A DNA stretch of 59,057 nucleotides from IMG/VR virus record IMGVR_UViG_3300033183_000090, positions 1 through 59,057 of that record, one strand, 5' to 3'. The stretch's first letter is position 1, and each line of letters begins with the position of its first letter. The position numbers and the translations under genes are program-made. This document shows positions 3,935 through 47,774 of the stretch, one piece after another. Origin of the DNA: a virus. Its lineage: Duplodnaviria; Caudoviricetes. The notes beneath the pieces are model-generated. The model was not told where the DNA came from and did not search any database. It was given only the letters and a program-made list of their open reading frames with translations.

Positions 3935-5899
3935 TTATGCAAATACGCGAGATGAAATCTCAAGGATGCGTTGCGTGCAATCCGCAGGTGCGGCGTCGGT
4001 AACCGTAGTCTGCACGGCTTCCTCCATGGCACGCTTGTCACCCATGAGGGGCTTGAAGTGTAGGAAGTACATCGCCATCGCATGCAGGTTACGAGGCGAC
4101 ATGGTCTGGCTGATCTCACCACCAGTGAACGCATTGCGTATCTCGGTAGCGAACTGTGCCATCTCCTTGACCTGACCAGCAGACAGGGCAGGGTACGACT
4201 TAGATAGCAGGCGCTCCTCGTCGTCTTGGTCAAGGTAAGGCACCTCGATGAAGGCACCGAATCGGTTGAGCATCGCAAGGTTCATGGGACGCACGCCCTG
4301 ATACCAACCATGCTCGTCACCCTGACCACGGCTGTTGGCCGTAGCGACGAAGCGGAACAACTCGTGAGGCTTGACCGTGCGACCACCATCCTCGGTCAGT
4401 GTCAGACCCTTGCGCTCAAGCGCCCGCTGAATCACGAACAACACGTCGGGGCGACCCGCATCAATCTCGTCAAGCACGAAGATGCAAGGCTGTTGCATGG
4501 CACGGGGCAGGATACCCTCACGGAACTTAGTCTTGGGCGAACCACCATCGACCGTGATCTCTACACCACCCACGATGTCAGCACGTTCGAGGTTGCTGTC
4601 GAGGTTAAGTCGCTCGATGGGGAAGCCAATGCGTGCGGCGATCTGCTCGGCAAGCGTAGTCTTACCAGTGCCAGTGTGACCGTGAAGCCAGATGTTCTGG
4701 CCGAACTGGATGGCAGACATGAACTTGATGAGGTGACGCAGTCTGAACTGGTACGCAGGGTCAACGTCAGGGCAGTCAGGGTGTTGCACCACATTACCTT
4801 GGTCATCCTTCCACACCAGTGTTGCCACGTCAAAGTCCAACTCCTTGGCAAGCGAACCGTCGGGCTTGGGGAACAGCGTGTTGGCACGCACATGCTTGAC
4901 CTCGTAGGTGAGGGTGCTTGCGTCCACGGTGACCGTGCCAGACTGTGCGACTGGTGCGAACACGGGTGCCGCATTGCGTAGTCGGTCAAGTTCTGCCTGA
5001 AGATCGGCGACGGCAGTCTTGCTAGACACCATCTCGTCGATGAGTGTGTTGATGTCAGACACCTTGCCCTTAGTCGCTTGGCCTAGCAGTGCGTTGACCG
5101 CAGGCAGTAGCGATGCGTCGACGCTCACACCCTGACTGACTGCCGGGGTTGGCTTAGTCTGCTCCGGGGATGGCTCCGGGTCACCAGTTAGCGCACTGAT
5201 GATGTTCTCGACCGCACGACCCTCGCTCGATGGCATGGCCTCGTGATCGGGGATCGAGTTGCCAGACTGGATGTGCAAGTCTACGCCTGCACGCACGGCC
5301 TGTATCTCTGACTCGGTCAGTCGCTCGACTCGGTCAGAATACAACTCAGCCATACGCTTGACGATGTGAGTGCCAATGGTCACCTCATTGCGTGACTCAC
5401 GCACGATGTCAGCGGCTACGAGTACGACGTTGATTGCAGTATCTAGTTGCATGTTAGTTCCTTGTGCTTGGGTTGGTGTGTTGTTGACGATGGCGTCGAG
5501 GTCGGTTGCGATGCGGTTTGGTTGAGTGCAATGCAGGTGATAGCCACGAGCCTTGCCCGAGCCGCGCTCTTTGTTGCAACACTTGCTGTCGTCATTCATG
5601 GCCTCGGTTAGTCGCTCGATGGCCGCCTCTTGGTGACGTGCGTCGTTGTACTCCGCAGACATCAGGATGCCGTGCGCAATGTCAGCGAGTGCATTGCGAT
5701 GGATCATGTCGAGTGTGCGGTTGACGCTGAGACCGACGGCGCTTTGGTACGCCGACCTGTCCTTGTTCTCGAAGACGCCGTTCACCAAGTCACGAGTGTG
5801 CGACTTGATGTGCTTGCGTGCCTCGTTGCCTGACTCTCCGATGACAGCCAGTAGATATTTGGCAAGTGTTTGCGCACTCGCCTTGTCATGTATTCGCAT
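3935..5899 (-). CDS. cobS: CobS-like (MoxR-family) AAA+ ATPase
   Basis: Walker A GHTGTGKT, Walker B FVLDEID, ATANSRGQGD, LNRF, MSPR. Confidence 0.9.
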   Translation of the reverse strand: MRIHDKASAQTLAKYLLAVIGESGNEARKHIKSHTRDLVNGVFENKDRSAYQSAVGLSVNRTLDMIHRNALADIAHGILMSAEYNDARHQEAAIERLTEAMNDDSKCCNKERGSGKARGYHLHCTQPNRIATDLDAIVNNTPTQAQGTNMQLDTAINVVLVAADIVRESRNEVTIGTHIVKRMAELYSDRVERLTESEIQAVRAGVDLHIQSGNSIPDHEAMPSSEGRAVENIISALTGDPEPSPEQTKPTPAVSQGVSVDASLLPAVNALLGQATKGKVSDINTLIDEMVSSKTAVADLQAELDRLRNAAPVFAPVAQSGTVTVDASTLTYEVKHVRANTLFPKPDGSLAKELDFDVATLVWKDDQGNVVQHPDCPDVDPAYQFRLRHLIKFMSAIQFGQNIWLHGHTGTGKTTLAEQIAARIGFPIERLNLDSNLERADIVGGVEITVDGGSPKTKFREGILPRAMQQPCIFVLDEIDAGRPDVLFVIQRALERKGLTLTEDGGRTVKPHELFRFVATANSRGQGDEHGWYQGVRPMNLAMLNRFGAFIEVPYLDQDDEERLLSKSYPALSAGQVKEMAQFATEIRNAFTGGEISQTMSPRNLHAMAMYFLHFKPLMGDKRAMEEAVQTTVTDAAPADCTQRILEISSRVFA

Positions 5900-8729: not shown

Positions 8730-8762
8730 GGGACGACTAGTTCTCTAAGTCTGTGAAATGAT
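8730..8762 (+). promoter_or_regulatory. Putative late promoter GGGACGAC-N19-AATGAT
   Basis: Same motif and spacing as 20840, 22209, 34925 and 54553; upstream of terS. Confidence 0.55.
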
Positions 8763-14294: not shown

Positions 14295-15331
14295 TGGCAA
14301 TCACGTCACCAACCACAGAGCAACTACGATTTCGCTCTTCTAAAACAGGTATTCACAACCTCGACGCCTATTTAGAGGCCGCCGAGAAAGGTGGCCGTGA
14401 GCTTCCCGATCTGCTTGATGACCTCTTCGATGCCAACGGTGACATCGACCCCAACCTGTTTCAGTTCCGCGTAAACAGTTCGACCTATAAACTTCAGGTT
14501 CGTGTAGGCCAGTTTGGCACCTCAAACGCTGGCTATGTAGATGTGCCGGACGGCACGTTCTTCCGCCCAACTGGTGCGTTCATTACTGGCACCTCATACG
14601 AAATCCACGACTTGTTTGAGGACGGCGGTAACCTTTACATGGTCACCGTCGCTCACGTCGGCGGCGCTATTCCTGACGTAACGAAGACACAGATTGTTCT
14701 GCGCGGCGGTGCGGGCGCTGTCCCCTCAACAACCACTCGTCTCGCGGGTCACAAAGGCCACTTCTTGCAAGTGGACTCAACCCAGTCTGGGTACAACCTA
14801 GTTCCATTTGCTGACAGCAACATTTTTTACGGCATCAGCGTGAACGCCAGCAACGAGTTCGAGATGACTGTTGTAGGCAAGACGCTTCAGTTGGCAGAGG
14901 CCGCAGTCATTACAAGTCTGCAAAACTATGTCACTGGCGACATGACTGATCCTTTAGTCGCAGTCGGATTCTGGGATGAATACTATGTCTACAACGGCAC
15001 GCAACGCCGGATGTTCGACGTAAACAACGACGGCGCGACCGTACCAGACTTGGACGACGTGATCGACTTAGCAAAGGTAATCGCTGGTATCACGACTAGC
15101 GGCGTCGCTTACGACGCATACGCTCTGCACATTAAGCCGACGCTCGTATCACGCGAAGCCGCGTACTCTAACTACGACGTGAATACAGGCGTAGACGTTG
15201 AGAAACTATTCAACTGGGCGCTTGATCCATCTCCTAACGCCGTCAATCCCAAAGACTACGACGCCTATTTCATCGGCAACGGTAGCGCCGACTTATCAGT
15301 CGTAAACAACGAATTGGTGCTAACGCTATGA
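14294..15331 (+). CDS. Virion/tail-associated protein with an EF-hand/dockerin-like loop
   Basis: Structural context; DVNNDG...DDVIDLAKVIAG. Confidence 0.65.
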   Translation: MAITSPTTEQLRFRSSKTGIHNLDAYLEAAEKGGRELPDLLDDLFDANGDIDPNLFQFRVNSSTYKLQVRVGQFGTSNAGYVDVPDGTFFRPTGAFITGTSYEIHDLFEDGGNLYMVTVAHVGGAIPDVTKTQIVLRGGAGAVPSTTTRLAGHKGHFLQVDSTQSGYNLVPFADSNIFYGISVNASNEFEMTVVGKTLQLAEAAVITSLQNYVTGDMTDPLVAVGFWDEYYVYNGTQRRMFDVNNDGATVPDLDDVIDLAKVIAGITTSGVAYDAYALHIKPTLVSREAAYSNYDVNTGVDVEKLFNWALDPSPNAVNPKDYDAYFIGNGSADLSVVNNELVLTL

Positions 15332-17049
15332 CAATAGATATATCGAATCTCGGACAGAAATGGCGTGGGCTTTACTCAGACAGCGCCGAGTACAAGAAAG
15401 GCGATGTCGTCCGCAAGGACGGCCACCCGCAGGTGTACAACGGAACCAACTGGTCTAAGATCGGCGTCAGCCAACTCAATGCCACGACTAAGGGCGAAAT
15501 TCTTTCGCCGGGGGCTACGCGCTCTATCAACGGCGTTAGCGGGCAAGAGCTAGTCGTTGGATCGGGCGGCGTCATTCAATTCGCGTACAAAGAAGGCCGC
15601 CACGGCAACACAGTCTACAAACTGGCACGCACTCAGCACCGCGCCGCAGAAGGCGAAGTATGGAACAAGGGCATTAGCAGTTCCTTGTACGGTCTTCCAC
15701 ATCAGAACTTCGGCTTCATTATGACTGACGGCTCCGTCCGCATGATTGGCCGATCAGACAACGGGACACTAGGCACTGGCAACACAAACGACATCAGCCG
15801 CGCCTTCCCGGTAACCGCCGCTTTCCCTCCGGGAACAGCGCCAATCGTTGACCTTGTCATGGGGCCACACGCCGCAACAACAGCCGCGATTGACGCAGAC
15901 GGTCAACTTTGGATGTGGGGCGAGAACAACTACGGCCAATGCGGTGTTGGCAACACAACAGACGTGCGCGTCCCAACGCTAATCAATGGTCGAGGTCAGC
16001 TACCAGCAAACGCCAAAGTCACTTCTGTTGAGTTCGGCACTGCTCCTTGGTGGGGCTACCACTGCACAATGCTCCAGTGTGACGATGGCCGAATCTACGC
16101 TATGGGTTCCAACAGATATGGCGCTCTTGGTTTTGAAAACGGTAGCTCATCAGACACATATTCGCCGACTTTAGTTCCGATTAGTGAGCGACTGAACATT
16201 GTTCGCTACTATCCAACGGCACAATATCACCAGTCTACAGTCTGGATCACGGACGAAGGCCACGTCTACATGTGCGGCGAGTACAACTCGATTGGCCGCA
16301 CAGCCACAGACAACGCATCTTACAGCTACCCACGCTTGTGGGCGCAGTCGATTATCGACCCAATCAAACACTTCTCTAACGAGGAAAGTGACTCGCACGC
16401 TCGTACTGGCGACCAATACTACCGCCACTACACATTTACCTCATGGGCTGGGAACACTTACCGCTGGGGCCACACTCAGATTTATTCTGGCACAGGGCCG
16501 TCGTATCCTTCGGCTGAAGCATGGGTTCCTTGGCTAGATGACCGCCATGGACAGCAAGCCGCAGAATACTATGGCACTCAAGGCGATTACCCAACCAACA
16601 TGCTTCGCACAAAAGACGGGCGCATATACGGCATTGGGTACGGCGGCCACGGTGCCGCAACATTCGGTAACGGCAATCAAAGCCAGTGGCTCGAACTAAC
16701 CGATCTCGGAAGTGACAACAAATATCTGTGGCACGGCGGCGCTCGTTACGGCAAAGCCGCGCTAGTCTGGAAGAACGATGGACGTATTATTTATTGGGGC
16801 ATGGCTCGTAATGGTGTTGCTGGTATGGGAGCAGACTTTAGTGGCACAAACACAGAGCCAGTAAAGTTGAACAGGAAAATCGTAGATTTCCAAATTGCCG
16901 GGTATGGGTACGACGACACCGGGTACAACAGGTTATATTTCCTTGACGAGCATGGCGTGGCCTATGGGTGCGGCCAGAACAACTACAACGTACTAGGCTT
17001 CGATGATGACAATGAAAGCATCTACACGCCGACGACCGTGATCTTTTAA
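15328..17049 (+). CDS. RCC1/BLIP-II-repeat tail/receptor-binding protein 1
   Basis: Repeats such as GQLWMWGENNYGQCGVG; N-terminal W.G.Y.....Y..GDVV motif. Confidence 0.8.
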   Translation: MTIDISNLGQKWRGLYSDSAEYKKGDVVRKDGHPQVYNGTNWSKIGVSQLNATTKGEILSPGATRSINGVSGQELVVGSGGVIQFAYKEGRHGNTVYKLARTQHRAAEGEVWNKGISSSLYGLPHQNFGFIMTDGSVRMIGRSDNGTLGTGNTNDISRAFPVTAAFPPGTAPIVDLVMGPHAATTAAIDADGQLWMWGENNYGQCGVGNTTDVRVPTLINGRGQLPANAKVTSVEFGTAPWWGYHCTMLQCDDGRIYAMGSNRYGALGFENGSSSDTYSPTLVPISERLNIVRYYPTAQYHQSTVWITDEGHVYMCGEYNSIGRTATDNASYSYPRLWAQSIIDPIKHFSNEESDSHARTGDQYYRHYTFTSWAGNTYRWGHTQIYSGTGPSYPSAEAWVPWLDDRHGQQAAEYYGTQGDYPTNMLRTKDGRIYGIGYGGHGAATFGNGNQSQWLELTDLGSDNKYLWHGGARYGKAALVWKNDGRIIYWGMARNGVAGMGADFSGTNTEPVKLNRKIVDFQIAGYGYDDTGYNRLYFLDEHGVAYGCGQNNYNVLGFDDDNESIYTPTTVIF

Positions 17050-17061
17050 TGGAGAGACAGA

Positions 17062-19125
17062 ATGGCAACAGTTAATCTAGGGAAGGTATCCTTTAGTTGG
17101 AAGGGGGCATACGACGCAACTGCCACTTACAACGAACAGGACATCGTGAATTATGAAGGCTCGTCGTATGTCTGTACGACTGACCAGACCACTGGTGTTA
17201 CGCCTGTCTCCAATGTGTTCTACAACGTAAACCCGCAGACTATCTCCTATGTAGTCACGGTGGCGCAGGACGCTGGCGGGATTGACCGTCTGTTTATTGA
17301 TGGGACTCAACAGCAAGTTCTCACGCTTCAGCGCGGCAACACTTACATCTTCGATGTATCTGACCCCTCAAACGTAGGCCACCTGCTTGATTTCAATGAC
17401 GGCGGCGTCCAGTACACTGGTACGGGTGTTACCCGGAACGGCACTGTTGGCACTGCAAACGCGAATGTAACCTTTGTTCCGCCATTAACACTGGTCACAT
17501 CTAGCTTTGAATATGTTTGCGCCAACCACGCAGACGAAGGTGCTTCGATCACGATCAACTCAACAGCTTCAAACACTGGTTACATCGCCGCATCTAATTG
17601 GGATTTGTTCGCGCAGGGCGTTGAGGGCATCACTACTGACCCTAACGACATCCTGTACTACGACGGTAATCAACTACAGAAACTGTCCGCTGGTAACGTC
17701 GGCGACGTGCTTTCTATTGGCAATAACGGCCTCCCAGAGTGGAGCGCACACAAGGCTCGCACAGGCGTGCGCGTCACAGCAATCAACGACCATCGCACCA
17801 TGATGTATCGCAGAGGGTGCGCTGTTATGGATGATGGCTCTGTGCGCTGGTGGGGCAGGGGCGAAAACTGGATGTTAGGCCAAGGGTCTTACACCGCTGA
17901 CCGCTCATACCCAATCCGCACGGCGTTCCCGCATGACGCAAAAGCCATCAAGTACATCTGTGGTCAGTACGACTACCAGTCCATCGCTATCGACGTTGAT
18001 GGTGGCCTCTACGTCTGGGGACAGAACGATTATGGTGATTGCGGCACTGGCAACACATCAGATGTCTGGACGCCATACTACGCATCCGGCAACAACGCGA
18101 ACTCTATATACGGCAAAGTAGTGACAGACTACGCGCCGATGTGTTCAAACCAAAACTACAACTCGACTTTGGTTCTGTGCGACGACGGTACGGTACACGC
18201 TTCTGGGTACAACGGATACGGCCAACTGGGCGTTGGCGATACGACTAACCGCTCAAACTTCGTCGAGCTACAGCTACTCACTGATGCAAACAATAAGGTA
18301 GTCCAGATTGAGCGCGGCAACGAGCGCTACACTCACTGCTTGGCATTGCGCGAAGATGGCAATGTGTGGTCTTGGGGCTACAACACCAGTGGTCAGTTGG
18401 GTCATGGGAACACTACACAGCTAAACATCCCACAGCGCATCCAGTATTTCGTGACCAATAACATCACGATCAAGAAAATTGGGTGCGGCAACGGTACTTC
18501 GTGGGCAATCGACACCAACGACAACTTGTATGTCTGGGGCTATAACGGCTACGGCAACTTGGGCCACAACGGCACAACCACTAACGCTGTTACATACTCA
18601 CCAGTCCTAGTCCTGACGGATGTGGCTAACTGCTACATGTGCCAAGCCGACTACGACTTCACGATTGCTCGCAAGACAGATGGCACTATCTGGGCAACTG
18701 GCGACAATAGCTATGGATGCCTCGGCGTTGCGGCTGACACAACAGACCGCTCTGGCTTCACACAATGTTGCAGAAACGGAAGCACCACCGACTACATGCA
18801 AAACATTGTGAAAGTCGTACATGGCGGCACAGGGTCGTACAACTACGCAATCGCGCTAGACGCTGACGGTGTTGCTTGGTCTGTAGGCTATAGCGGCAAC
18901 GGCCAGTTGGGGCGTGGCACAAGCGACGCAACAAACTACTTCTATTACCCAGTCCTGCTTAACAAAACTATCGTCGATATTTGTTGTGTAGGAACAGGCT
19001 CCGAAGGCGGCACCTGCTTCCTTTGCGATGATGGCTCAATGTACCAGTGTGGTTACGCAGGCGAATCTCAGTTGCCTGAAGACGACGACGAGTACATTCA
19101 GACACCAATGCCTGTGATCTTCTGA
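17062..19125 (+). CDS. RCC1/BLIP-II-repeat tail/receptor-binding protein 2
   Basis: Multiple WG.N.YGQLG.G repeats; CBM5/12-like N-terminus; cupredoxin-like insert. Confidence 0.85.
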   Translation: MATVNLGKVSFSWKGAYDATATYNEQDIVNYEGSSYVCTTDQTTGVTPVSNVFYNVNPQTISYVVTVAQDAGGIDRLFIDGTQQQVLTLQRGNTYIFDVSDPSNVGHLLDFNDGGVQYTGTGVTRNGTVGTANANVTFVPPLTLVTSSFEYVCANHADEGASITINSTASNTGYIAASNWDLFAQGVEGITTDPNDILYYDGNQLQKLSAGNVGDVLSIGNNGLPEWSAHKARTGVRVTAINDHRTMMYRRGCAVMDDGSVRWWGRGENWMLGQGSYTADRSYPIRTAFPHDAKAIKYICGQYDYQSIAIDVDGGLYVWGQNDYGDCGTGNTSDVWTPYYASGNNANSIYGKVVTDYAPMCSNQNYNSTLVLCDDGTVHASGYNGYGQLGVGDTTNRSNFVELQLLTDANNKVVQIERGNERYTHCLALREDGNVWSWGYNTSGQLGHGNTTQLNIPQRIQYFVTNNITIKKIGCGNGTSWAIDTNDNLYVWGYNGYGNLGHNGTTTNAVTYSPVLVLTDVANCYMCQADYDFTIARKTDGTIWATGDNSYGCLGVAADTTDRSGFTQCCRNGSTTDYMQNIVKVVHGGTGSYNYAIALDADGVAWSVGYSGNGQLGRGTSDATNYFYYPVLLNKTIVDICCVGTGSEGGTCFLCDDGSMYQCGYAGESQLPEDDDEYIQTPMPVIF

Positions 19126-19136
19126 GGAACGGGAAA

Positions 19137-19394
19137 GTGACGGATACAGTGACCCTCTCACAAGCCGAACTAGAAGTCCTTCTCCAGCAAGCCGCGAAGC
19201 GGGGGGCGGAGGAGGCTCTAAACAAGCTCGGCCTGCATGATGACAACGCGGGCCACGACATCCGGGAACTCCGCCAGCTTATCGACAGTTGGCGGGAGGT
19301 AAAACTAACTGCGACTAAGACCCTAGTTAAGTGGCTTATGCTCGGTATCATCGGCATAATTTCGCTTGGCGCTTACCTTAACATTAAGCCGTAA
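19137..19394 (+). CDS. DUF6127-like small membrane protein
   Basis: AAKRGAEEAL.KLGL.D..A..DIRELR.LID.WR plus C-terminal TM helix. Confidence 0.7.
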   Translation: MTDTVTLSQAELEVLLQQAAKRGAEEALNKLGLHDDNAGHDIRELRQLIDSWREVKLTATKTLVKWLMLGIIGIISLGAYLNIKP

Positions 19395-19396
19395 CC

Positions 19397-19690
19397 ATGA
19401 CGAACAAGCAAAAGTATGAACAACTTGAAAAACTACTGAAGACGCAAGGGTGGACAGTCCTCCAAGAGGAAATGCGCAAGTCTATCCTGCAAGCGGCTTT
19501 TCAACTGTCTGAGAAATCAGAGATGTCAGTTGATGAAATACACTTTCGACGCGGTGCCATGTGGGCCGCGAAGAAGTTTCTCGATCTGCCCGAAGCTGTT
19601 AAGGCGCTCCTTAACAATGAAATACTGATGGAAGCAGTGCAGAAAGGCGAGATCAAAACCGATGAGCGCTACGGCCCTCAAAACATGTAA
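19397..19690 (+). CDS. Hypothetical head-module protein
   Basis: GW..L...M / F.RG pattern; lies just before the scaffold gene. Confidence 0.7.
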   Translation: MTNKQKYEQLEKLLKTQGWTVLQEEMRKSILQAAFQLSEKSEMSVDEIHFRRGAMWAAKKFLDLPEAVKALLNNEILMEAVQKGEIKTDERYGPQNM

Positions 19691-19721
19691 CGTCCGCTAC
19701 GGCTGACAAAGGAGTAAGAAA

Positions 19722-20822
19722 ATGGCTACAGTAAATCCACAAATGGATCAGGCAATGATCCAAGATATGGCGGCTAAACAGTTGGGCGCTCCGGCCCCCG
19801 AAGGTGCAATGCCCCCTCAAGGACAGCCAGCGGCACCTCAAGCCGCACCACAGCAACCACAGCAAGACCCTCGCAAAATGGACAGCCCGCCGACTAATCA
19901 GGAGAAAGCGGCAGAGGCACTAGGCCCACAGACTGAAGGTGATCGCGCTCGTGAGGAAGCCTTTATCGAGGTCGATTTTGGCGACGGCAGAAAAGAAGTA
20001 ATGTCAGCCTCTCAGATTGCTGGCATGACAAGCAGGTACAAAGACCTAAACCACAAGAACGCTACCCGTTACAAACCGATGGAACCAGCCATTGGCTTGA
20101 TCGAGCAGATGATGAACAACGCCCGTGCGGCTGGGCATGAACCCAGTGGCAACGACGTTGCTCAATTCCTCGAAGCGGCTATCCGCGCTTACACGTCTAA
20201 CCCGACTATGGGTGACCAGCGCGACCCAACGCCAGATCGTCCGGGTAAGAACAACAGAGATTTCGACAGCCAAATCGAAGCAGAAATCGCTCAATGGGAA
20301 TCTGACAACGCAGTCAACCTCCCGCCAATGTACCGTCAGGGCATGAGCCTCATCCGCCAACTCCAAGCCGAGAACAACGAGATGAAGCAGATGATGTCTG
20401 GCTTCCTGCAACAAGCTCAAGGTGTGAACCAAGAAGCAATGCAGGCAGTTCAAGGTGCCAACCAGAACGCAGACAACGCCTATCGTCAGCGTGCGGCTAA
20501 CAACCTGAACGAAGCCCAGCGCAAGCTAAACCTGCCAGATGACGCAGAAGATGACTTCTTCGATTTCGCTTTTGGTCGTGGTTACACGGTCGAAGACTTT
20601 ATTGATCCAGACTTGACCATGAAGGTCATGTCGGATTTTGCCAACAACCGCGCTACTCCAGAAATGGAGCGGTTACGCGCACTCAACCAACGCCGCCAAG
20701 CGTTCACTGGTATCTCTGGGGCCACGCCTTCTATGGGCGGTCAGTCTCCAGCCGGAGACCCGAACTCAGACTTTATGAACAACGTCGCGGCACAGGCAAT
20801 GCGCAAGCGCGGATTGGCGTAA
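19722..20822 (+). CDS. Putative capsid scaffolding protein
   Basis: Q/P/A-rich, coiled-coil-like, immediately upstream of the major capsid gene. Confidence 0.7.
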   Translation: MATVNPQMDQAMIQDMAAKQLGAPAPEGAMPPQGQPAAPQAAPQQPQQDPRKMDSPPTNQEKAAEALGPQTEGDRAREEAFIEVDFGDGRKEVMSASQIAGMTSRYKDLNHKNATRYKPMEPAIGLIEQMMNNARAAGHEPSGNDVAQFLEAAIRAYTSNPTMGDQRDPTPDRPGKNNRDFDSQIEAEIAQWESDNAVNLPPMYRQGMSLIRQLQAENNEMKQMMSGFLQQAQGVNQEAMQAVQGANQNADNAYRQRAANNLNEAQRKLNLPDDAEDDFFDFAFGRGYTVEDFIDPDLTMKVMSDFANNRATPEMERLRALNQRRQAFTGISGATPSMGGQSPAGDPNSDFMNNVAAQAMRKRGLA

Positions 20823-20830
20823 AATAAATT

Positions 20831-20872
20831 TCAGGAACAGGGACGACAAATCACCTGTTCCTGACTTTTAAT
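20831..20872 (+). promoter_or_regulatory. Terminator-like hairpin with embedded GGGACGAC-N19-TTTAAT promoter
   Basis: TCAGGAACAGG/CCTGTTCCTGA stem then CTTTT; motif at 20840-20847. Confidence 0.65.
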
Positions 20873-21021
20873 ACAGGTAAGGAAGCACGAGTCGCTACGG
20901 CCACCCGCCTTTCTGTAAAAGGGAAATGCAAGTCTTCACTGTGGCTGGAGTCCAGAAGATGAGCAGTATGCCCAGCAAAACGCAACATGTTTAACCAATG
21001 CACGTCTGAAGGAGATTCGTT

Positions 21022-22200
21022 ATGACTGCAATCACTGGTTTGCGTGGGACTGGTCAGTTTAGTGTTGACTTCCGCCCCACCAATTATCGAGAGTTGTTTA
21101 CTCTCTTGGAGCCTAACGGTACTGCACCTTTGCAAGCTCTGCTCGCAATGGCTGGTTCCGAGGCAACTGACGACCCTAAGTACAACCACTTCCGTGATGA
21201 ACTGCCTGATCGTAAGTTGACCGTCAACGGCGCAATCGCATCTACCTCTACTGGGGCAGTTGTGGTGAACTCGTCTGACGACCTTAACTTCGTCGTATCG
21301 GGTGCTGTCATTGTGAACGTAGACACTGGCGAAGTTATGCACGCCACTGCCAACGCAAACACTGGCACGAACACCATCACTGTAGACCGTAACATCGGCG
21401 GTACTTCACATCAGATCGCGGATGGCGCGAACCTGATTATCGCTGGCTTTGCGGACTCTGAAGGTGGTTCTAGCCCGACAGCTATCAGCTTCGATCCGAC
21501 CACTGACTACAACTACACGCAAATCTTTAAGACTGCGGTACAGGTCAGCGGCACCTTGCAGAACACTTATCTGCGCACTGGTGACAAGGAGCAGGAGCAA
21601 CTGACTAAGGCACTGAAACTTCACATGGGCGACATCGAACGCGCCATGTTCTTCGGTGTACGTCACGAAGCTAACGGCTCGTCTGCTTCGCCGACTCGTT
21701 ACACTGGCGGTCTGAAGAACCAGATCACTAACGTAACTGACGGTGCATCTTACGGCGCTACTGCTAACACCATCACTGAGAAAGAGTTTGACCGCCTGTT
21801 GATCGAAGACATCTTCGCTTACGGCGCAAACGAGAAAGTCGCTTTCTGTGGCGCTCGTGTCATCTCCAACTTGATGGAAATCGGCAAGAACCGCTGGCAA
21901 CCAACTCAGATCGACAACGCATACGGCGTATCGCTTTCGCGCTACACCACTTACGCTGGCGACCTGTTGGTTTACATGCACCCAATGTTCCGTCAGGTTC
22001 CGGGCATGGATCAGGAAATGATCGTTCTCGATATGGCAGAACTGAAGTACCGCTACATGCAGGGTCGTGACACCCAGCTTATCCGCGATATTCAGGCTCC
22101 TGACTTCGACGGCGTCAAGCACATGTACCAAACGGAGTGTGGTCTGGAAATGACCCAAGCCAAGGTACACCACCGCATCAAAGGCTGGGCGGCAGTCTAA
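21022..22200 (+). CDS. Major capsid protein (SU10/DUF5309-like)
   Basis: NYTQIFKTAV.VSGT, K..IERAMFFG, RYTGGL, ECGLE; flanked by strong RBS and terminator. Confidence 0.9.
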   Translation: MTAITGLRGTGQFSVDFRPTNYRELFTLLEPNGTAPLQALLAMAGSEATDDPKYNHFRDELPDRKLTVNGAIASTSTGAVVVNSSDDLNFVVSGAVIVNVDTGEVMHATANANTGTNTITVDRNIGGTSHQIADGANLIIAGFADSEGGSSPTAISFDPTTDYNYTQIFKTAVQVSGTLQNTYLRTGDKEQEQLTKALKLHMGDIERAMFFGVRHEANGSSASPTRYTGGLKNQITNVTDGASYGATANTITEKEFDRLLIEDIFAYGANEKVAFCGARVISNLMEIGKNRWQPTQIDNAYGVSLSRYTTYAGDLLVYMHPMFRQVPGMDQEMIVLDMAELKYRYMQGRDTQLIRDIQAPDFDGVKHMYQTECGLEMTQAKVHHRIKGWAAV

Positions 22201-22208
22201 TCCCGATA

Positions 22209-22241
22209 GGGACGACTTCCAGAGCCTTGTGGCGATAAACT
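22209..22241 (+). promoter_or_regulatory. Putative late promoter GGGACGAC-N19-TAAACT
   Basis: Intergenic copy of the repeated motif. Confidence 0.65.
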
Positions 22242-22268
22242 GGGGCAGGAGCAATCCTGCCCCTTTTT
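22242..22268 (+). terminator. Intrinsic terminator after the major capsid gene
   Basis: GGGGCAGGA-GCAA-TCCTGCCCC-TTTTT. Confidence 0.85.
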
Positions 22269-22285
22269 GTATGTAGGAGATAAGG

Positions 22286-22606
22286 ATGACCGAATCCGAA
22301 GTCGAAACCGTTACTGAAACTAAAGTTGACCGTAACAAGGAAAATACCAAGGCGGCTACGGCGGCCAAGAAGACTGCGGCTATGAAGACTGCGGCGACCG
22401 TCCCACCTAAGTCTGAGGTGGTTCTGTTTGTTTCTGCGGGCCAAGAAATCCGCCAATTTGACATCACCGTCGCAGGCCAGCGCATCGACGCTTTCTGGGA
22501 CGAGAAGCACGAACACCTATGCTGGCGCGTACCGACCGCACTGGCTGATCGGTTCGCAATGCACGAGTTTGTCGTGCGCGGACGCATCCTACGCGCAGAG
22601 GGCTAA
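22286..22606 (+). CDS. Hypothetical virion-module protein
   Basis: AGGAG RBS; K/A/T-rich N-terminus. Confidence 0.7.
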   Translation: MTESEVETVTETKVDRNKENTKAATAAKKTAAMKTAATVPPKSEVVLFVSAGQEIRQFDITVAGQRIDAFWDEKHEHLCWRVPTALADRFAMHEFVVRGRILRAEG

Positions 22607-22609
22607 CCT

Positions 22610-23248
22610 ATGGCAACGGCACCAAGAACTTACCCACTCGCCTCGATTAGAGGCGACAAACCAAAGAATGACGACCCCCGTCACACTGGTAGCGACGGTA
22701 CGTCTCAGGTTGGTGCCATTGACCTCAAAGGCCCGACTAACGCAAACACTTCGCAGACTGCTGACAAAGCATGGCGCGAGAATGAGCAGGCTCGTGAGAA
22801 GCGTAACCGTTACTCGTCTAACAACCCGTATCTCAAGGAGCCTTACTCACCTCTCGAACCACTGGTAATGCAGGCGCTTCGTCGCTATGGCGACATGCAC
22901 CCCGGCACAGTGGACGGCGAAGTGATGATGATGTTTATCGAATTTGCGAACCTCATCATTGAAGACTTGCGTGCGCATCCATACTGGGACAACCCAGAAA
23001 TCGACTACTACACACACCCCACAGAGTGGCGGGCGATCCCAGATAACATCATTGTTTCTGGCCTCCTCTATCACTACGCGGTGCAACAGCAGTCGAACAA
23101 GATCGAAGCCTACGGCCCGATGTACTTCAAAATGATGAACCGTGTTCTGTACAACCGCAAATACGGCTCTGGCAAAATCGAGATGTCGCCTTGGGATAAG
23201 TCTCAGGCTCCGACTGGCTCGATGACATACGATCAGCGCAGGAGTTAG
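22610..23248 (+). CDS. Putative head-tail adaptor
   Basis: Size and position between capsid and nozzle genes. Confidence 0.55.
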   Translation: MATAPRTYPLASIRGDKPKNDDPRHTGSDGTSQVGAIDLKGPTNANTSQTADKAWRENEQAREKRNRYSSNNPYLKEPYSPLEPLVMQALRRYGDMHPGTVDGEVMMMFIEFANLIIEDLRAHPYWDNPEIDYYTHPTEWRAIPDNIIVSGLLYHYAVQQQSNKIEAYGPMYFKMMNRVLYNRKYGSGKIEMSPWDKSQAPTGSMTYDQRRS

Positions 23249-34993: not shown

Positions 34994-37900
34994 GTGGCTT
35001 TACGCTCTTCTCAGATTGCATCTACCCTTACTACGACCACTAATCCCGTACAGGAACAAGGGTCGCAGTCTCTTGGCTACGCCGCCAACCTAAACCCAGA
35101 AAACGTCCGCAACGTCCTGAATAGCCGCGAGTTTATTCAAGACATCATGGACTACTACGGCGAGCGGGATGGCCGCTCTTTCCAGAGTAACGCTGAAGCC
35201 ATCGACTACTTCATGTCCGACCGTCGTTGGAAGAACATGAACACCGTTTCCATGGCGAAGGAATTGATGAGTACGGGGGCCGACTCCAATGCTCAGAACG
35301 GTAGACTTGCACGTCTACAGACAGTCTTCGACGCCGCACCTAGCTTCTACGAAGAAGGTGGTGACGGCTTCGCTGGCTTTGCAGAGAACGCGGCGGCGGC
35401 AGTCCTTGACCCGATCAACCTGATCGGTTTCGGCTCTGGTGGAGCGGCGGCTAAAGCGGCGGCGGCAGGTGTCCGCGCACAAGCGGGTCATGCTCTTAGT
35501 CGTGAAGCCCTTAACGCAACTCGCCGAGAAGCAACCAGAGCGGGGCTGCGAGCAGGTATCGCAGGCGGTGCGCGTGCAGAGGGTCTCGCTGAAGGCTTCG
35601 TCTCTGGCACACAGAGCGCACTAACTCAGAACCGAAACATCAATATCGGTCTCCAAAACGAATTTAGCTACGGCCAGCTTGCCGCAGATACAGCCCTTGG
35701 CACTGTCATGGGTGGTGCGATTGGCGCTCCTATGGGTGCCGCTGGTGCTGTACTCCCGAATCCTCTGGTGCGCGGCGCGAATGGCGAACGCTTCACCATG
35801 GAAAACTCGATCACTCGCGGTATCCGTGAGGGGCAACAGCAAGTTCGAGCAGACCTGCGAGCAGGCCGTGAGGCAGATGCACTAGACGCAGAGGCTAACG
35901 CCACTCCGGCTCGCACTCCAGAAGAAGAAGAAGACGTAGCATTTAATGACACTGCCGCTCGCGCTCGCGCTCGCGCAGAACGTCTGACCTCTCAGGAGGC
36001 TGAAGCCGCCGCTGATGCACAAACTCGTGCGGCGGCTGAGTCTGACTCTACTCCTACTGTCGGCACTCCTGACCCCAATCAGCCACGTCCCGACAGCGAA
36101 GGTACACGCCTGCGCTTGTCCGCTCAGACTATGCTTGATGCCCGTCGTGCGGCAGTTGCTAAAGATGCGCAAGCGGCAAAGGCGGCAGAGTCTGGCGATG
36201 TAGCGAAGGCAAGCGAACTTCGTGCAGAGGCCGAAGCTCTTCGCCAAGGCTCGAATGACATCAAGCAGACCCTAGATATTCTCGACTCTGACGCTAACGC
36301 CAGAGAGAAGCAGGCGGCAATGGATGCGCTTGCAGAGAAGCAAAAAACTACTGTCCAACTTCTTTTGCCTGCGCCAGAAGCGCGTCAGGCATTGCCTGCG
36401 CCAGACCCGAACAACCCGATCCCATCGACTGGGCAAGTCTACGACGAGGCTGGCAACCCAATCATCCAGCTTCCTGATGGCTCTCCGGGTCGCAACTTAA
36501 ACGAAGACGAACTGCTTCGTAAGCGTGCGATCATGCCCGAGGTTAAAGTCGACGGCCAGCCGATGCGCACCAACGAGGCAGGTGCCGCCGCAATTCAGGC
36601 AGAAGCTGACGCGGCTCAAGCTCAGCGTGACCTTGAACTGGGTGTCCAGCAGGGCGAACGCCCCGGAACATCTCGACCAGATATGGTTGAAGAAGCTCGT
36701 CTCGAACAAGAGATTGCCACAGACAAAGACGCCTTAGTCGCGGCTGACCAGTCTATTCAAGAAATCAATGCTCGATTTGAGGCAGAGCCTGACCCAGAGA
36801 AGAAGCCTGCAATACAGGCCGAACTGGATCAGGCACTGGCAAGCCGCCAAGAAATTGCAAGTCGCATCAACACCAACGAGTTGCGCACTGCCCAGATTAA
36901 AGCAGAGCGCATCCAGAACGGCGCTGAAAGACAGAAGGCTCTCGACGCTGTCGCAAGCCAAGAGGATGCGCTGGCAACAGAGGCAAGCACCGATGGCACC
37001 CGCGTCGAGGCTGGCGCAGAGGATGGCGACGCACCAACCGTTGAGTTCACCGATGCGGACATCACACCAGAAGCCATAGCTGATGCGACTGGCACTAACA
37101 CCAATACATTGTTGGATGTTCTGGAGTCACTGGGTCACAACCGTAACTACGAACAGCGCGTCCTCAAAGGGCTTGGCGATGCACGCACAACTGCGGGCAA
37201 GACTAAGCGCCGCGAGTATCTAGTCGACAGACTAAAGCGGGCGAAGGCACGCGAAGTTACAGCGTCAAACCTGAAACTTCTGACTATCGACAACAAGTTC
37301 AACCGCAATATTGTTGAAGCCATGCTTGAAACGGCTGGCTTGGATGATGCCGAACTCGCTCATGCTATCGACATTTACGACAAGTTCTTGGAGCGTGCCG
37401 GATACAGCCTATTCCTTGAGAAGATGGCAGACCTTGGCCCGCTTGGAACACCAAGTCGCGTCCTGTCTGTGTTGCGCGAGACTGTTGGGCCAGATGCTGT
37501 TGCGGCTGTTGAGAAAGCAATCGCAAGTCGTGGCGCACTGCATGCAGAAATCCCACGCGATCAGTTGGTCGGCATCTACAAGTTGCTGTCGCCTGAACAA
37601 AAAGCGAAGATGACGCAGTTCAAAGCCATCTACCTCAAGAACATCAAGATGGATAACCCCGGCATCTCAGAAGCAGATGCCGAGCGCATGGCGAAACACG
37701 CCGTCGAACAACTCGTAAAAGTCCAGCTTCAGCGTACCATCGGACAAGACCCTAAAGCGGCTACCGCATTGGGCTTGGGGCAGGACATCGTTGACGACAT
37801 TCTCAGCCGTACCGAAGGCGTCCACATGGGCAAGCAGGTACGCGCAGGTTCTGGCTACTACAACCAGAATGGCCGCCTAGTTAAGGGCGGTGATGTTGTA

Positions 37901-40900
37901 AACAAAGCCCAGCGCATGCTTCAAAGCGCAAACAGCAAAGGCTACATCGGCAAGCTGATTATCCAAGGCCGTAAGCGCGACGCAGGTGGCAACACCATTC
38001 GCACCAGCGCTGGCTTCACAGCCCTAGATCAGTTGCTCGACGCGGCAATCCAGCGTGCGACTAACCGTGGTGGCGAGGCTGACCCGATCAAACGCGCTCG
38101 CGCAGTTGAGCAGGCTAAAAAGAATAACAACGACGCCATGAACCCAGAGGTTCTGGAGCCAATCGCCAAGGAATTGAACCTTGCGAATGGCATGCTTAAC
38201 CGCTGGCTGAAGGCGCAGGAAAATTACGATGGCCCAGTTGAGGGCGCTGAGATCGCCAAGATCGAGGGCAAAATCGACGAAGCGCGTATCCGGCTGGGTG
38301 ATGCTATTGTTGCCGCTCAACAAATTCTTGGGGCGAAGGGTGGCGAACATGCAGACGGCATACTGAAGGCGCTTCGTGAGCGCATCTCGATGCTCACTAA
38401 GTCTACTGGCAAAGAAGCCGCCGGAAACCGCAAAGAAAAAGCGATGGCCGAGTCGGCTCGTTCGATGATTACAGTCGAACTCAATGCCCGTCGTGCAGAG
38501 CTTGGCGCTAAGATTCGCCGTCACAACCAGCAAGTCGCAAGCGGTCAGAAGACTGATATGAGCGATGCGCAGGTTGCCGCACTGCAAGAGCAGATCGTGC
38601 AACTTGGCAAAGACCTAGACCAAGCCATCTCCAAGGTGGGCGTGGCAGAGCGCCGCATCTTCAAAGAGATGAAGAAGACACTGGCGGCTGAGCGGATTGC
38701 TCAGAACAAACTCGACATCAACGCAGGTCAGATGACTGAGGCTGAAGCCCGCGCTTCAGACGAGGCATACGAAGCGTGGCTGATGGAAGGTCTTGATCGC
38801 CAAGAGGTCGAGACCATGGCGTCAGACATGGCCGACAATGTGAACCGTGTTGAGTCTGCAAACCGCCAGCACGCGAAAGTAGTCAACGAGGAAATTGCTC
38901 CAGACTACAACAAAATGACTAAGGCGGAGTTGATCTCTCGCCTCAAAGAAGCAGAAGCCAAGCGCCAGAAACGTCTAAGCGCTGTCTCAGACATCAACAC
39001 GATGCCTGCTGGCAAGCGTTATAAGCCTTTTATGGTGAGCGTTCGTGGTGTTGAAGTCGACGTACATAACGACTTCACATTCACAAAAGGCACCGATGGA
39101 ACCGTCGAAGTTCGGATGGCTGACTCTCAAGAAGTTCTTGGGAAAATCCAAACCATCGAAGGCCACGGCTTTGTGTTCCACAAAACAGCCGACGCGGCTG
39201 ACGCGCCGAAGACTTTGTTCACAACCAATGACGCACTGAAGCGCCAGCTTCCTGTCATGTTCGAGGCTCGCATCAAGAAGCTGAACGAAGACACCTCGAA
39301 CTTCGATGTGCGTGAGAACGAACCAGACCTCGTCTACTATGAGCCAGACTACAAGCAGTCTGAGACTTATGCTGATGCGCCAGTGCGTGAGATCACTGAA
39401 GCAGACATCGTCGATCCAATCGCTCAGCCCCGCGTAGTCGGCGACCCAAGTAATCCTCTGTCAATGACAGAGGATAACTTCGATGTCCCAGCAGGACGCA
39501 AGTTGGCCGTTCAGATCATCGACCCTGAGTCTGGCAAGTCGTTCAAGTCTGTCCGGGTTTTGAGCTACAAGGGCAACCAGTCTATTGGCGATGTTCTCAA
39601 GACATCCGCCAAGTACAAGTACGTCGTCGGCCACGTTGAGGCACCATATAAGTCTGGCTCTATCGGTGCAGAAGAAACCTTCCGCCCGCTCGATCCTGAA
39701 GACGCCTTCTACCCAGCCAACGCGACTGAGCCAGTGCTTGGTGCTGAGTACGCACCGACTAGCGGAAACGACCGTAGTTCTCGCCGCATGCGCAAGAACC
39801 GTCCGCACAAGCTGGAAGATTTAGCTGGCAAGGCGATCATTGGCGCACCAGAGTTCTACGCTGATGCTGGCATCCGCAGTGTCGCAGACCTAGTCCAATA
39901 CGTCGCAAACCTTGAGATGATCCCTTGGGCGCAACTCAAGGACAAAGCCAACTACGACTTGTTCGTACAGCGCCGCATCGAGGCAGGCCAACTCCTTCAG
40001 CGCAATGCGCCTAATGGTATTGACCGTCCAGTTGCTGACGCCCGTGTAGCAGTAAACCAGTTGCGCGAAGTGTTTGCTGGCGCGGCTGACGATGAGATCG
40101 TAGCGGCAGAAGCGTTCATCATGCGTCTGGCATCGAAAAACCAAGGTCAAGCTCCGCTTATCAAGGGCGGCCTTGAGAGCCAGTACATGCCGAACACGCT
40201 TGGCGCACCGGGCGCTGAGCGTAACCGCATCTCGATTGGCGACCAAACACTGCGCGTAGACGAAGACGGCAAGCGTTACCGCCCAGCCGTTGGTGATCTT
40301 GTGCATGAAGTCGGTCACTGGATTTACATGAACCTGATGACCGAGTCCGAGAAGTTGCAGTTCTGGGATTCTGTCGGCAAGTACATGACAGAAGACGGCT
40401 TTATGATTGACCACATCCAGCGCCGTGTCGTGGATGGCATCTATTCAAACGCCATTGAGTCTCCTGCCGAGATGTTTGCCCACCAGTTCTCTGGTTGGGT
40501 TGTCGGCAACGGCATGATTAACAACACTTCGCTCTGGACTAAGATCGCTCGCAAAGCGCAGGCAATCATCAAGAAGTTCATCAAGCGCGAAGAGTTTGAA
40601 ATCGACCCAGACTTGGTGCCAATCTTCCAGAAGTACATGCCTGTACTTGAGATTGACCCAGTAACTGGTGCATCAAACGGTGGCGTTAGCCGCTTTGCAC
40701 ACCTCGAAGAGTTCGGTGCCAAGGTCGGCAAGAAAGAAGGTAAGGGTGCGGCACTCGCAGGTAAGCAACTGCGCGTACTAGACGAACGTCGCATCGAGCT
40801 TCTTGATGTACTCAACACTAGCTCAAGCGAAGCGACCGACTCACTCAGTCTGATTATGACTTTGGAGCGCGTGCAGAAAGCACTGTACGGCGACTACGGT

Positions 40901-46255: not shown

Positions 46256-46452
46256 CGCTTAAAGAAGTTCTAGCTCAGAAACTTATCCCCCGAGGCATGA
46301 TGATCGCTATGACCATCATGTCTTGGCGGGTAGTCGAGTGGTTTATGACCCTCTCTGACCCAAGCCCGTCTCAGGCGGGCTTGGTTTCTGTCGTAACTGG
46401 CGCAATGACAGGCGCATTTGCCGTGTGGCTTAACCATGAAAAGGACAAATAA
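46252..46452 (+). CDS. Small two-TM membrane protein (lysis cassette)
   Basis: Two hydrophobic segments; coupled to both neighbours. Confidence 0.65.
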   Translation: MTLKEVLAQKLIPRGMMIAMTIMSWRVVEWFMTLSDPSPSQAGLVSVVTGAMTGAFAVWLNHEKDK

Positions 46453-46847
46453 TGTTATCAGCACTCATAGGCCCAGTGACTGGGCTACTAGATAAGTTCA
46501 TCCCTGATGCGGACGAGAAGGCAAAACTCGCCCACGAAATCGCAACACTTGCGACTAAGCAGGCCCACGAAATTAGTCTCGCCCAGATCGAGGTCAACAA
46601 AGCGGAAGCGGCTTCTGGCTCAGTCTTCAAGGGCGGATGGCGTCCTTTTATTGGTTGGACGTGCGGAGTGGCCTTTGCTTACCATTTTGTTATTCAGCCT
46701 CTGCTGGTGTTTGGCGTCGCTATTTCTGGCGTTACTGTCCCTGATCTTCCGGCTTTTGACATGAGTTCTCTTTTAACTGTACTTGGCGGGCTACTTGGCC
46801 TCGGCTCTTTGCGCACGTTTGAAAAGTACAAGGGGGTCACGAAGTAG
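46452..46847 (+). CDS. Holin (3TM/DUF3154-like)
   Basis: LDKFIPD.DEK, N..EA.S...F..GWRPFIGW.CG, LLGLG.LRTFEK.KGV. Confidence 0.85.
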   Translation: MLSALIGPVTGLLDKFIPDADEKAKLAHEIATLATKQAHEISLAQIEVNKAEAASGSVFKGGWRPFIGWTCGVAFAYHFVIQPLLVFGVAISGVTVPDLPAFDMSSLLTVLGGLLGLGSLRTFEKYKGVTK

Positions 46848-46848
46848 C

Positions 46849-47322
46849 ATGGACATCGACAGCGTCAAAACGTATATCGGTATTGCGACTGCCGCTGTTG
46901 GACTAGCGGCTGGCGGCTATCAGGCCGCTGACAAAATCGGGTGGCTACAAAAGCCCATTCTTGAGTGGTATCCCGAGCATTTCAGCATCACTAGCGGGCC
47001 AGCAAACGAGCCGTTCAAGGTGGTAGTCGCACGAGAAAAGCTACGCGACGACTGCACAGTTGAGAACTTCATACTCGATGTGCGCGACAGCGAGCTACTG
47101 GTGCATCAAACAACACCATCTATTACTACATTCATGGGGCCAGCGAACCACAAAGTGGATACGTTTGCCTACACCTTCACCTTCAATGAACCAGAGAAAG
47201 TAAGCGAGGGCGTGGCAACGCTTATCGCCTACATCCACTACGGCTGTCCCGAAGGGCCAGTTGTGGTGCAATACCCAGACCACCCAAACCTTACCTTTAA
47301 CGTAGAAGGAATCTCACAATGA
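46849..47322 (+). CDS. N-terminally membrane-anchored protein (lysis cassette)
   Basis: One TM helix followed by a beta domain with two Cys. Confidence 0.6.
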   Translation: MDIDSVKTYIGIATAAVGLAAGGYQAADKIGWLQKPILEWYPEHFSITSGPANEPFKVVVAREKLRDDCTVENFILDVRDSELLVHQTTPSITTFMGPANHKVDTFAYTFTFNEPEKVSEGVATLIAYIHYGCPEGPVVVQYPDHPNLTFNVEGISQ

Positions 47323-47774
47323 GTTTCAAACTTTCACAGCGCAGTCTCGATAAACTGGAGGGCGTCGACGAGCGATTAGTCGAAACTGTTAAGCGTGCAA
47401 TCGAGATCACCACCGTAGACTTTGGAGTCATCCAAGGCTTGCGAACTCTCGAAGAGCAGAAGGAACTTGTTGCTAAAGGGGCGAGTCAGACTATGAAGTC
47501 GCGCCACCTCGAAGGCATGGCCGTAGACTTAATGGGCTACTTGTCCGGGCGGGCCTGCTGGGAAATCACAATTTACGACGACATCGCAGATGCCATGAGA
47601 CTGGCGGCACTGGAGACAGATACCCCGATCCGTTGGGGTGGGTGCTGGATAGTCGAGGACATCCGCGATTGGAAGCAACCAATGTCAGAAGCCTACAACT
47701 ACTACGTCGATACTCGACGCAAGCAGGGTCGACGACCATTTATTGATGGGCCGCACTTCGAGATACCCGGCTAG
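47319..47774 (+). CDS. Endolysin, peptidase M15 family
   Basis: GLRT.EEQ, SRH..G.AVD, WGG, DGPHFE. Confidence 0.9.
   Translation: MSFKLSQRSLDKLEGVDERLVETVKRAIEITTVDFGVIQGLRTLEEQKELVAKGASQTMKSRHLEGMAVDLMGYLSGRACWEITIYDDIADAMRLAALETDTPIRWGGCWIVEDIRDWKQPMSEAYNYYVDTRRKQGRRPFIDGPHFEIPG

Follow-up and report, generated by a model that had tools for sequence, protein, structure and literature searches.

We report a small RNA hairpin that recurs in the head-gene region of IMG/VR virus record IMGVR_UViG_3300033183_000090, a complete virus record of 59,057 bases from a CRP-810-type phage (hereafter the window, by which we mean this whole stretch of DNA). The element is a real, strand-specific hairpin under strong selection that is not explained by protein coding, and it occurs solely on the scaffold and capsid messages of a single phage family. 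Three copies, hairpins 1, 2 and 3 (H1, H2 and H3), accompany the genes for a putative scaffold protein and the major capsid protein. We consider the chances about even that the element is a factor-bound post-transcriptional operator that links the output of these two shell proteins. Scaffold and major capsid protein are the phage proteins needed in the largest and most tightly matched amounts.

All three hairpins lie on the coding strand and have a common design, in which a lower stem of 2-4 base pairs (bp) is followed by a pyrimidine-pyrimidine mismatch, by GC paired with GC, and by a UACG loop. The original prediction, made from the window alone, had described three such hairpins with a TACG loop and a C.C or C.T mismatch, and the sequence bears this out (Table 1). 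It had also placed them in the leaders of head genes, which is correct except for H1 in the window, where the hairpin falls within a 97-amino-acid (aa) open reading frame (ORF), p97, that is itself preceded by an 85-aa ORF, p85. H2 lies directly 5' of the scaffold ribosome-binding site and H3 is found at the start of the capsid leader. When the segment 19655-19725 is folded, H1 and H2 both form and leave AAAGGAG and the AUG unpaired. The folding energies of H1, H2 and H3 are -7.0, -6.2 and -4.8 kcal/mol, respectively (z-scores -2.2, -2.1 and -0.6); because these single-sequence energies are modest, the case for the hairpins rests on the relatives and not on folding energy.

The 9-mer CGCTACGGC is present in five copies in the window (four on the + strand and one on the - strand) against 0.65 expected, and none of 100 shuffled sequences reached five. 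Two of these copies (12576 on + and 4338 on -) are not part of the three hairpins; they are located within coding sequence and their flanks are unpaired. The - strand copy (4338-4346) lies on the sense strand of a leftward AAA_5 (CobS-like) gene (3935-5899), has 13 consecutive bases in common with H3, and is probably due to chance. A scan for Y-GC-N4-GC-Y with at least two flanking pairs returned 42 places on both strands, and the TACG loop was found only in H1, H2 and H3; another of these places, at 19783-19800, has a TCCG loop. A look-alike with a G.G mismatch at 22351-22366 does exist, as had been pointed out before, but it reaches only 8.1 bits (E = 4.7) with the covariance model described below and has no counterpart in 81 related loci, and given this low score and lack of conservation we take it to be a chance occurrence. 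No intrinsic terminator, defined by a G+C-rich stem with five or more pairs and a T run behind it, was found at H1, H2 or H3 in a scan of 18900-22700; the sequences that follow the three hairpins are AAAACA, AAAGGA and CCGCCT.

Relatives were collected by a capsid-protein scan of viral contigs, which gave 129 relatives, 80 of which were kept (69-88% capsid identity). The gene order p85-p97-scaffold-capsid is the same in the kept relatives wherever these genes fall within the locus. Sites were picked by the 10-nucleotide (nt) core only, within the expected regions, with pyrimidines required at the mismatch and six loop sequences accepted; deduplication left 108 distinct 24-mers. A scaffold-capsid spacer exists in 77 loci, made up of the window, Roseobacter phage CRP-810 and 75 contigs, and every one of them has H3. 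The end of p97 is covered in 66 loci, of which 65 have the tandem of H1 and H2. CRP-810 alone deviates: H3 is present, H2 is a variant with a UAAG loop and a C.C mismatch, and H1 is missing; when this variant is counted, H2 is found in 66/66 loci. Absence from homologous leaders had been set beforehand as the outcome that would speak against the hairpins, and these counts show the opposite. The leader sequence around the hairpins is otherwise poorly conserved in the alignment.

The most conserved part of the element is its apex. Among the 108 24-mers, core positions G9, C10, G14, G15 and C16 are invariant, including the C-G pair that closes the loop (columns 10 and 15), while C8, T11, A12 and C13 are at least 90% conserved. 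The apex, which had been described as invariant among the three copies in the window, is nearly invariant over its 10 nt across the family. The loop is UACG in 89 sequences, UUCG in eight, CACG in seven, UAAG in two and UUAG in two, and all of these are four-base loops of the YNMG tetraloop class. The mismatch is C.U in 71 sequences, C.C in 31, U.C in four and U.U in two; in H2 it is C.U in 30 of 30 unique sequences. The expectation of a fixed mismatch also holds, as the core with pyrimidines on both sides is found in every locus, CRP-810 H1 apart. A repaired copy would appear as a missing site, and CRP-810 H1 is the only one missing, so that no repaired variant was seen. The mean energy of the hairpin 18-mers is -5.2 kcal/mol. 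A pure stability element would not need ten fixed nucleotides and would profit from a closed mismatch; the sequence pattern hence suggests specific recognition.

The lower stem, in contrast to the apex, differs in sequence from copy to copy and still pairs, as was noted for the window, and all four Watson-Crick types are used across its three pairs. In the 108 24-mers, pair 7-18 is AU in 37, GC in 29, CG in 22, UA in 13, UG in three and something else in four; pair 6-19 is GC in 39, CG in 28, AU in 20 and UA in 15; and pair 5-20 is GC in 50, UA in 27, CG in six and AU in three, with 22 unpaired. A fourth lower-stem pair is mostly absent. In total, 85% of the lower-stem cells are paired compared with 58% in column shuffles, and the covariation score is 0.60 compared with 0.12; none of 500 shuffles reached either value, and when the register is shifted by one to three columns the covariation score does not exceed 0.18. 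It would be hard to obtain all four Watson-Crick types at two positions without selection for pairing. At the two inner lower-stem pairs we counted six wobbles that can pair only in RNA of the + strand (U.G or G.U) against one A.C or C.A.

Depending on the phage, the stop codon of p97 lies before H1, between H1 and H2 (as in the window) or, in a few cases, after H2; when translated, H1 reads ERYGP, DATAS or PPATAG in different frames, or else falls after the stop. Because the frames differ, or H1 lies outside p97 altogether, H1 is not explained by protein code. The distance from the last nucleotide of the H2 stem to the start codon of the scaffold gene is 11-14 nt in 60 of 65 loci.

We built a covariance model (CM) from the 108 sequences. 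In the window it gives 28 bits for H2, 27.1 for H1, 18.1 for H3 and 17 (E = 0.0044) for a fourth candidate, H4 (match at 19780-19803), and the next match has 10.6 bits. In 602 kilobases of related loci the model gave 193 matches at E<=1; every one is on the gene strand and, judged by its coordinates, falls at one of H1-H4. The matches themselves are expected because the model was trained on the same sequences; what is informative is that nothing else scores. Five complete relatives have the head-gene sites and a few weaker CM matches each. Two of these extra matches (G001:7526 and G003:12489) lie inside long open frames and were taken as chance. In capsid relatives of at most 34% identity (Vibrio, Microcystis and Caulobacter phages and three contigs from metagenome-assembled genomes) no CM match exceeds 11.6 bits; the three annotated phage records (Vibrio, Microcystis, Caulobacter) have short scaffold-capsid spacers. 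Rfam 15 gave no match at gathering thresholds in the whole window, and at E<=10 in 19500-21100 it gave four weak matches, none over a hairpin. A search of full-text literature with the motif strings returned no phage paper by title among the matches listed, and a search for a UACG tetraloop together with a bacteriophage translational operator returned no paper using the first term among the matches listed. We conclude that the hairpin element is a new RNA motif of a familiar type.

The status of H4 is less clear. It folds with -9.8 kcal/mol, and its core is found in 16 of 65 loci, where about one would be expected by chance (an estimate from the background rate of the loci). The lower stem is paired in only seven loci, all from the clade of the window, and elsewhere the apex stands alone. 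The codon in its loop encodes T, S or P in different loci; since the encoded residues differ, selection at the RNA level is hinted at, with the clades being few. H4 may also be a by-product of the peptide LGAPA.

The original prediction had proposed that the hairpins are a protein-binding RNA operator that coordinates scaffold and capsid. The invariant apex, the unrepaired mismatch, the covariation of the stem and the fixed position of H2 support this proposal in part; protein binding, the identity of the binder and the direction of the effect are inferred. If the operator reading is correct, the three hairpins would be copies of one RNA recognition element, and a sequence- and shape-specific factor, most likely a phage protein of the head module, would bind them after transcription. 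On H1-H2, the 3' end of which lies 0-3 nt from the scaffold Shine-Dalgarno sequence, the factor would hinder binding of the 30S subunit. Its binding to H3, which may lie at the very start of the capsid mRNA or close to it, would alter the translation or the lifetime of that mRNA, and a single factor would in this way tie together scaffold and capsid output.

Several observations weigh against an operator. In five of 65 loci an insertion or another small ORF separates H2 from the scaffold start. H3, at 92-134 nt from the capsid ATG across the 77 loci, is too far away to block the ribosome directly. In the fold, H1 and H2 leave the Shine-Dalgarno sequence free, and with no factor bound they would be neutral or even helpful for translation. 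In the ORFs scanned, Pfam and PHROGs revealed no RNA-binding domain, and no binder was identified. The small protein p97 has no PHROG or Pfam match, Foldseek against the PDB returned nothing at E<=0.001, and a p97 profile search of PDB sequences returned nothing below E = 0.14. The invariance could be due equally well to a conserved host factor, for example a ribonuclease (RNase), or to a phage protein. Finally, the shuffle statistics overstate independence because the sequences are kin from one phage family.

A more specific version of the operator reading, which we put forward tentatively as something short of probable, is a head-assembly RNA regulon, in which a phage protein reads the YNMG hairpin with its Y.Y mismatch on both the scaffold and the capsid mRNA and couples synthesis to the pool of unassembled subunits. 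The candidate binders would be the putative scaffold protein or p97, and the hairpin of the capsid mRNA would act inside a structured leader of about 130 nt, together with another conserved stem-loop, SL2. p97 is conserved in the family, with invariant W19, M26, R51, R52, G53, A57 and P65 and an RRG..W..A patch, and its AF2 model is a three-helix bundle (pLDDT 86.6). It is present in CRP-810, and in four distant capsid relatives that have no hairpins the p97 profile found nothing in the locus, a coincidence that is confounded by descent. The 366-aa putative scaffold protein has no PHROG or Pfam family and no PDB sequence match; its AF2 model consists mostly of long helices with disordered stretches (pLDDT 66). 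These properties are compatible with a scaffold, and the label rests on the position of the gene and on the predicted model.

If the regulon exists, we know of no RNA operator for capsid/scaffold stoichiometry that was defined before it in a tailed double-stranded DNA (dsDNA) phage, and it would be common to a globally abundant marine family. Control of the scaffold/capsid ratio in P22 is understood genetically. The element of 16-18 nt would offer a concrete and mutable handle on scaffold/capsid dosage, and a marine phage in culture allows its control to be tested directly. Provided the binder is found, the small hairpin and its specific partner would also make a new orthogonal RNA tag.

Operators of this kind are known from other phages. 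In the translational operators of the MS2 and PP7 coat proteins and of T4 gp43, gp32 and RegA there is likewise a fixed loop together with an irregular position and a covarying stem. They are likewise located at the ribosome-binding region, where they match output to need (for the T4 cases, PMC3014915). The present element differs in that it belongs to head genes of a dsDNA phage, has a Y.Y mismatch in place of a bulged A, and occupies three sites on two messages; furthermore, H3 is about 100 nt or more from its start codon and the binder is only a candidate. A closer parallel in function is P22, where the N-terminus of the scaffolding protein is implicated in translational autoregulation, according to bioRxiv 10.1101/2022.12.13.520362. 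By analogy, the logic here could be the same, with scaffold output tuned post-transcriptionally to the state of assembly. No RNA operator is known to have been defined in P22. The putative scaffold described here has no detectable sequence relation to any solved structure, and RNA binding is only proposed for it.

The tetraloop itself is of a widespread type. Hairpins with C(UUCG)G, UNCG and YNMG tetraloops have reportedly been described by Tuerk and co-workers in 1988 and by Proctor and co-workers in 2002, including some in T4 intercistronic regions. Here, too, a four-base loop closed by C-G is found in phage intergenic RNA, and the five loop variants fit the class. However, the T4-type tetraloops are generic stability elements with free stems, whereas in our case two pairs below the loop and a destabilising mismatch are fixed, at three places per genome.

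The leader of the capsid gene, which is opened by H3, contains further conserved features (Table 1). Besides SL2 it holds a ACACGNAAC-like block, and it is not in Rfam. The conserved CUGNANN loop of SL2 has 11 or more pairs around it in 41 of 46 unique leaders; the five failures are sequences with a misplaced anchor. In per-sequence folds the mean number of enclosing pairs is 13.4, compared with 5.9 when the flanks are shuffled. RNAalifold recovered only H3 on MAFFT alignments of the whole leader; run on the SL2 region it gave nothing, because the alignment was out of structural register, and we replaced it by the per-sequence folds. We dropped a kissing interaction between the loops of H3 and SL2, for which complementarity exists in some clades only, and mimicry of 16S helix 14, where the match to the helix is limited to the loop and the closing pair.

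Another recurrent signal of these loci is the GGGACGAC box, which occurs 10 times in the window against 2.2 expected; its + strand copies include those at 8730, 20840, 22209, 32140 and 34925. The box is found at gene boundaries: in nearly all relatives it comes directly behind the stop codons of scaffold and capsid, and in the window the copy at 8730 heads a rightward operon and the one at 34925 precedes a giant ORF. In the related loci, GGACGA is found 35-57 nt ahead of the H3 core in 74 of 77 cases and 0-10 nt from the capsid stop in 77 of 82, overlapping the stop in the other five, and GGGACGA shows a strand bias of 115 on + to 11 on -. An AT-rich -10-like hexamer usually follows the box after 15-19 nt. 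The box may be a phage-specific -35-type promoter element, in which case the capsid message would begin almost with H3. However, some clades have the box within a terminator stem-loop, and after the capsid gene it comes just before the terminator; alternatively it could be an RNA signal tied to gene ends.

Table 1. Hairpins, genes and signals of the scaffold-capsid region, in window coordinates (MFE, minimum free energy).
Feature	Position	Strand	Description
p97 ORF	19397-19690	+	upstream of scaffold gene; last codons contain H1 in the window
H1	19663-19680	+	TGAGCGCTACGGCCCTCA; 4-bp lower stem, C.C mismatch, GC/GC, UACG loop
H2	19692-19707	+	GTCCGCTACGGCTGAC; 3-bp lower stem, C.U mismatch, GC/GC, UACG loop
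Scaffold Shine-Dalgarno AGGAG	19710-19714	+	ATG at 19722; unpaired in fold of 19655-19725
Putative scaffold gene, 366 aa	19722-20822	+	directly upstream of capsid gene
Candidate H4	19783-19800	+	inside scaffold coding sequence, about 60 nt in; UCCG loop, C.C mismatch, 4-bp lower stem
Terminator-like hairpin	20831-20864	+	after scaffold stop; 5' arm and loop hold GGGACGAC box (20840-20847), then CTTTTAAT
H3	20891-20904	+	GTCGCTACGGCCAC; 2-bp lower stem, C.C mismatch, GC/GC, UACG loop
SL2, three-tier stem-loop	20921-20973	+	loop CUGGAGU at 20945-20951; from MFE folds
ACACGNAAC-like conserved single-stranded block	20977-20986	+	between SL2 and capsid ribosome-binding site; alignment A2 columns about 110-125
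Capsid Shine-Dalgarno	21010-21014	+	
Major capsid protein gene	21022-22200	+	phrog_1328 major head protein, E 2.7e-38
Second GGGACGAC box, then intrinsic terminator	22209-22216 (box), 22242-22263 (terminator)	+	after capsid gene

This arrangement is relevant to another explanation, which we regard as possible but rather unlikely, namely that the hairpins are mRNA stabilisers or processing-boundary structures that mark or protect the mRNA segments for scaffold and capsid at their 5' ends. In this view H3 would be at the 5' end of a transcript begun behind the GGGACGAC box, and H1 and H2 at an end made by an endonuclease. Head-shell messages would then outlive tail-fibre messages with no dedicated repressor, and the apex would be read by an RNase of host or phage or kept for folding. 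Precedents are the 5'-terminal stem-loops of E. coli ompA, which stabilise the mRNA, and the intercistronic hairpins of Rhodobacter puf, which set the stability of segments; these are likewise placed upstream of a ribosome-binding site or at a 5' end, where they raise the yield of an abundant structural protein in a polycistronic unit. The position of H3, 35-57 nt behind the box and its AT-rich hexamer and ahead of a gene with a strong terminator, is the layout of a self-contained message with high expression, and the hairpins leave the ribosome-binding site free.

Contigs from two seawater RNA-library studies also bear on stabilisation. They cover part of the capsid gene, and of its leader they have only the portion from about 20904 and about 20911 onward, just 3' of H3, and none from either study bridges the scaffold-capsid spacer, although a contig from a third run, of unknown kind, does. 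This pattern is a weak hint at most, because contigs cannot show transcript ends and DNA is possible in RNA libraries; stretches with no RNA-contig cover in runs X1 and X2 carry no evidential weight. A stabiliser has no need of a fixed 10-nt apex, and a closed mismatch would be favoured, yet in the loci examined none of the three sites yielded a closed copy. The ompA and puf hairpins, unlike those described here, have neither a conserved apex nor an obligatory mismatch. The hairpins are also weak, as the energies given above show. Should the hairpins nevertheless be plain stabilisers, they would be a tidy but ordinary case of segmental mRNA stability.

It is improbable, in our judgment, that the hairpins are antitermination sites that modify RNA polymerase, as in the lambda nut/boxB or HK022 put systems, with late transcription reading through after the scaffold and capsid genes and with H3 acting together with SL2; the nascent hairpin would either load a factor onto the polymerase or act on the polymerase itself. 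The boxB and put elements are likewise small hairpins of the nascent transcript that are specifically recognised upstream of terminators, and terminator-like structures do lie downstream of the present sites (20831-20864 and 22242-22263). The first of these escaped the terminator scan on account of its 12-nt loop. H3 and SL2 also form a leader of two stem-loops directly after a candidate promoter box, a placement that resembles that of put sites. Even so, the boxB-like alternative offered in the original prediction fits less well than an operator. The loop is a four-nt YNMG loop in 108 of 108 sequences and not a GNRA-like pentaloop, so that loop type and size differ from boxB; two of the three sites abut a start codon and do not follow a promoter. 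For H1 and H2 no promoter is recognisable upstream, with GGGACGA found within 400 nt in only two of 60 loci, and the fixed spacing of 11-14 nt between H2 and the start codon would have no role. With regard to lambda-like partners, no small arginine-rich N-like protein was recognised in the ORFs scanned, and no search for a boxA-like sequence was made.

Very improbable is a role of the element as DNA, whether as a hairpin, extruded as a cruciform or formed in a single strand, that serves as a promoter or origin-like signal, or as the site of a DNA-binding protein: the CGCTACGGC core is as invariant as a DNA site, and the window encodes a 3753-aa ORF of an unmatched family that recalls N4-like phages, whose giant virion RNA polymerase reads DNA hairpin promoters with a stem of 5-7 bp and a three-base loop, but the sites are all on the coding strand, the wobbles favour + strand RNA, the flanks covary to keep a pairing for which a site in duplex DNA has no use, the distance to the Shine-Dalgarno sequence is fixed, the loop has four nt instead of three, and the giant ORF matches neither a polymerase nor any other family in PHROG or Pfam.

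The phage family to which the window belongs was recognised from its capsid protein, which shares 65% identity with the one annotated in Roseobacter phage CRP-810. According to PMC11288001, CRP-810 represents a newly described family of marine temperate phages that has 251 uncultured relatives and an ocean-wide global distribution, and it was cultured on Roseobacter CHUG strain FZCC0198; the reported hosts are SAR11, Poseidonocella, Sphingomonadaceae and CHUG. The main text of that paper never mentions hairpin, promoter, scaffold, stem-loop, RNA polymerase or intergenic. Because the family is globally distributed, the motif would be a useful marker of its head module in metagenomes and metatranscriptomes. 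A blastn search of 19300-21100 against a phage collection gave no match, and the family members were reached solely through the capsid protein search and not by nucleotide search. The gene set of the window includes an integrase, CobS/CobT-like genes, a Prim-Pol, a terminase, an SU10-type portal, RCC1-repeat fibre genes and the capsid gene.

Some other genes of the window deserve mention. p85 (19137-19394, +) matches DUF6127 (E = 1.6e-23) and has a C-terminal hydrophobic helix; it is a small membrane-anchored protein within the head-gene block. Upstream of it, at 15328-19125 (+), are two RCC1-repeat proteins of 573 and 687 aa that are tail-fibre-like by PHROGs, and their placement between the portal gene and the head-shell genes is unusual. 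The giant ORF of 3753 aa occupies 34994-46255 (+); together with the preceding ORF of 923 aa it presumably encodes an internal virion or ejection protein. It is followed at 46452-47774 (+) by a lysis cassette that contains a holin with three transmembrane segments of the gene transfer agent type (PF11351, E = 2.5e-23) and, two ORFs after the holin, a weak match to peptidase M15.

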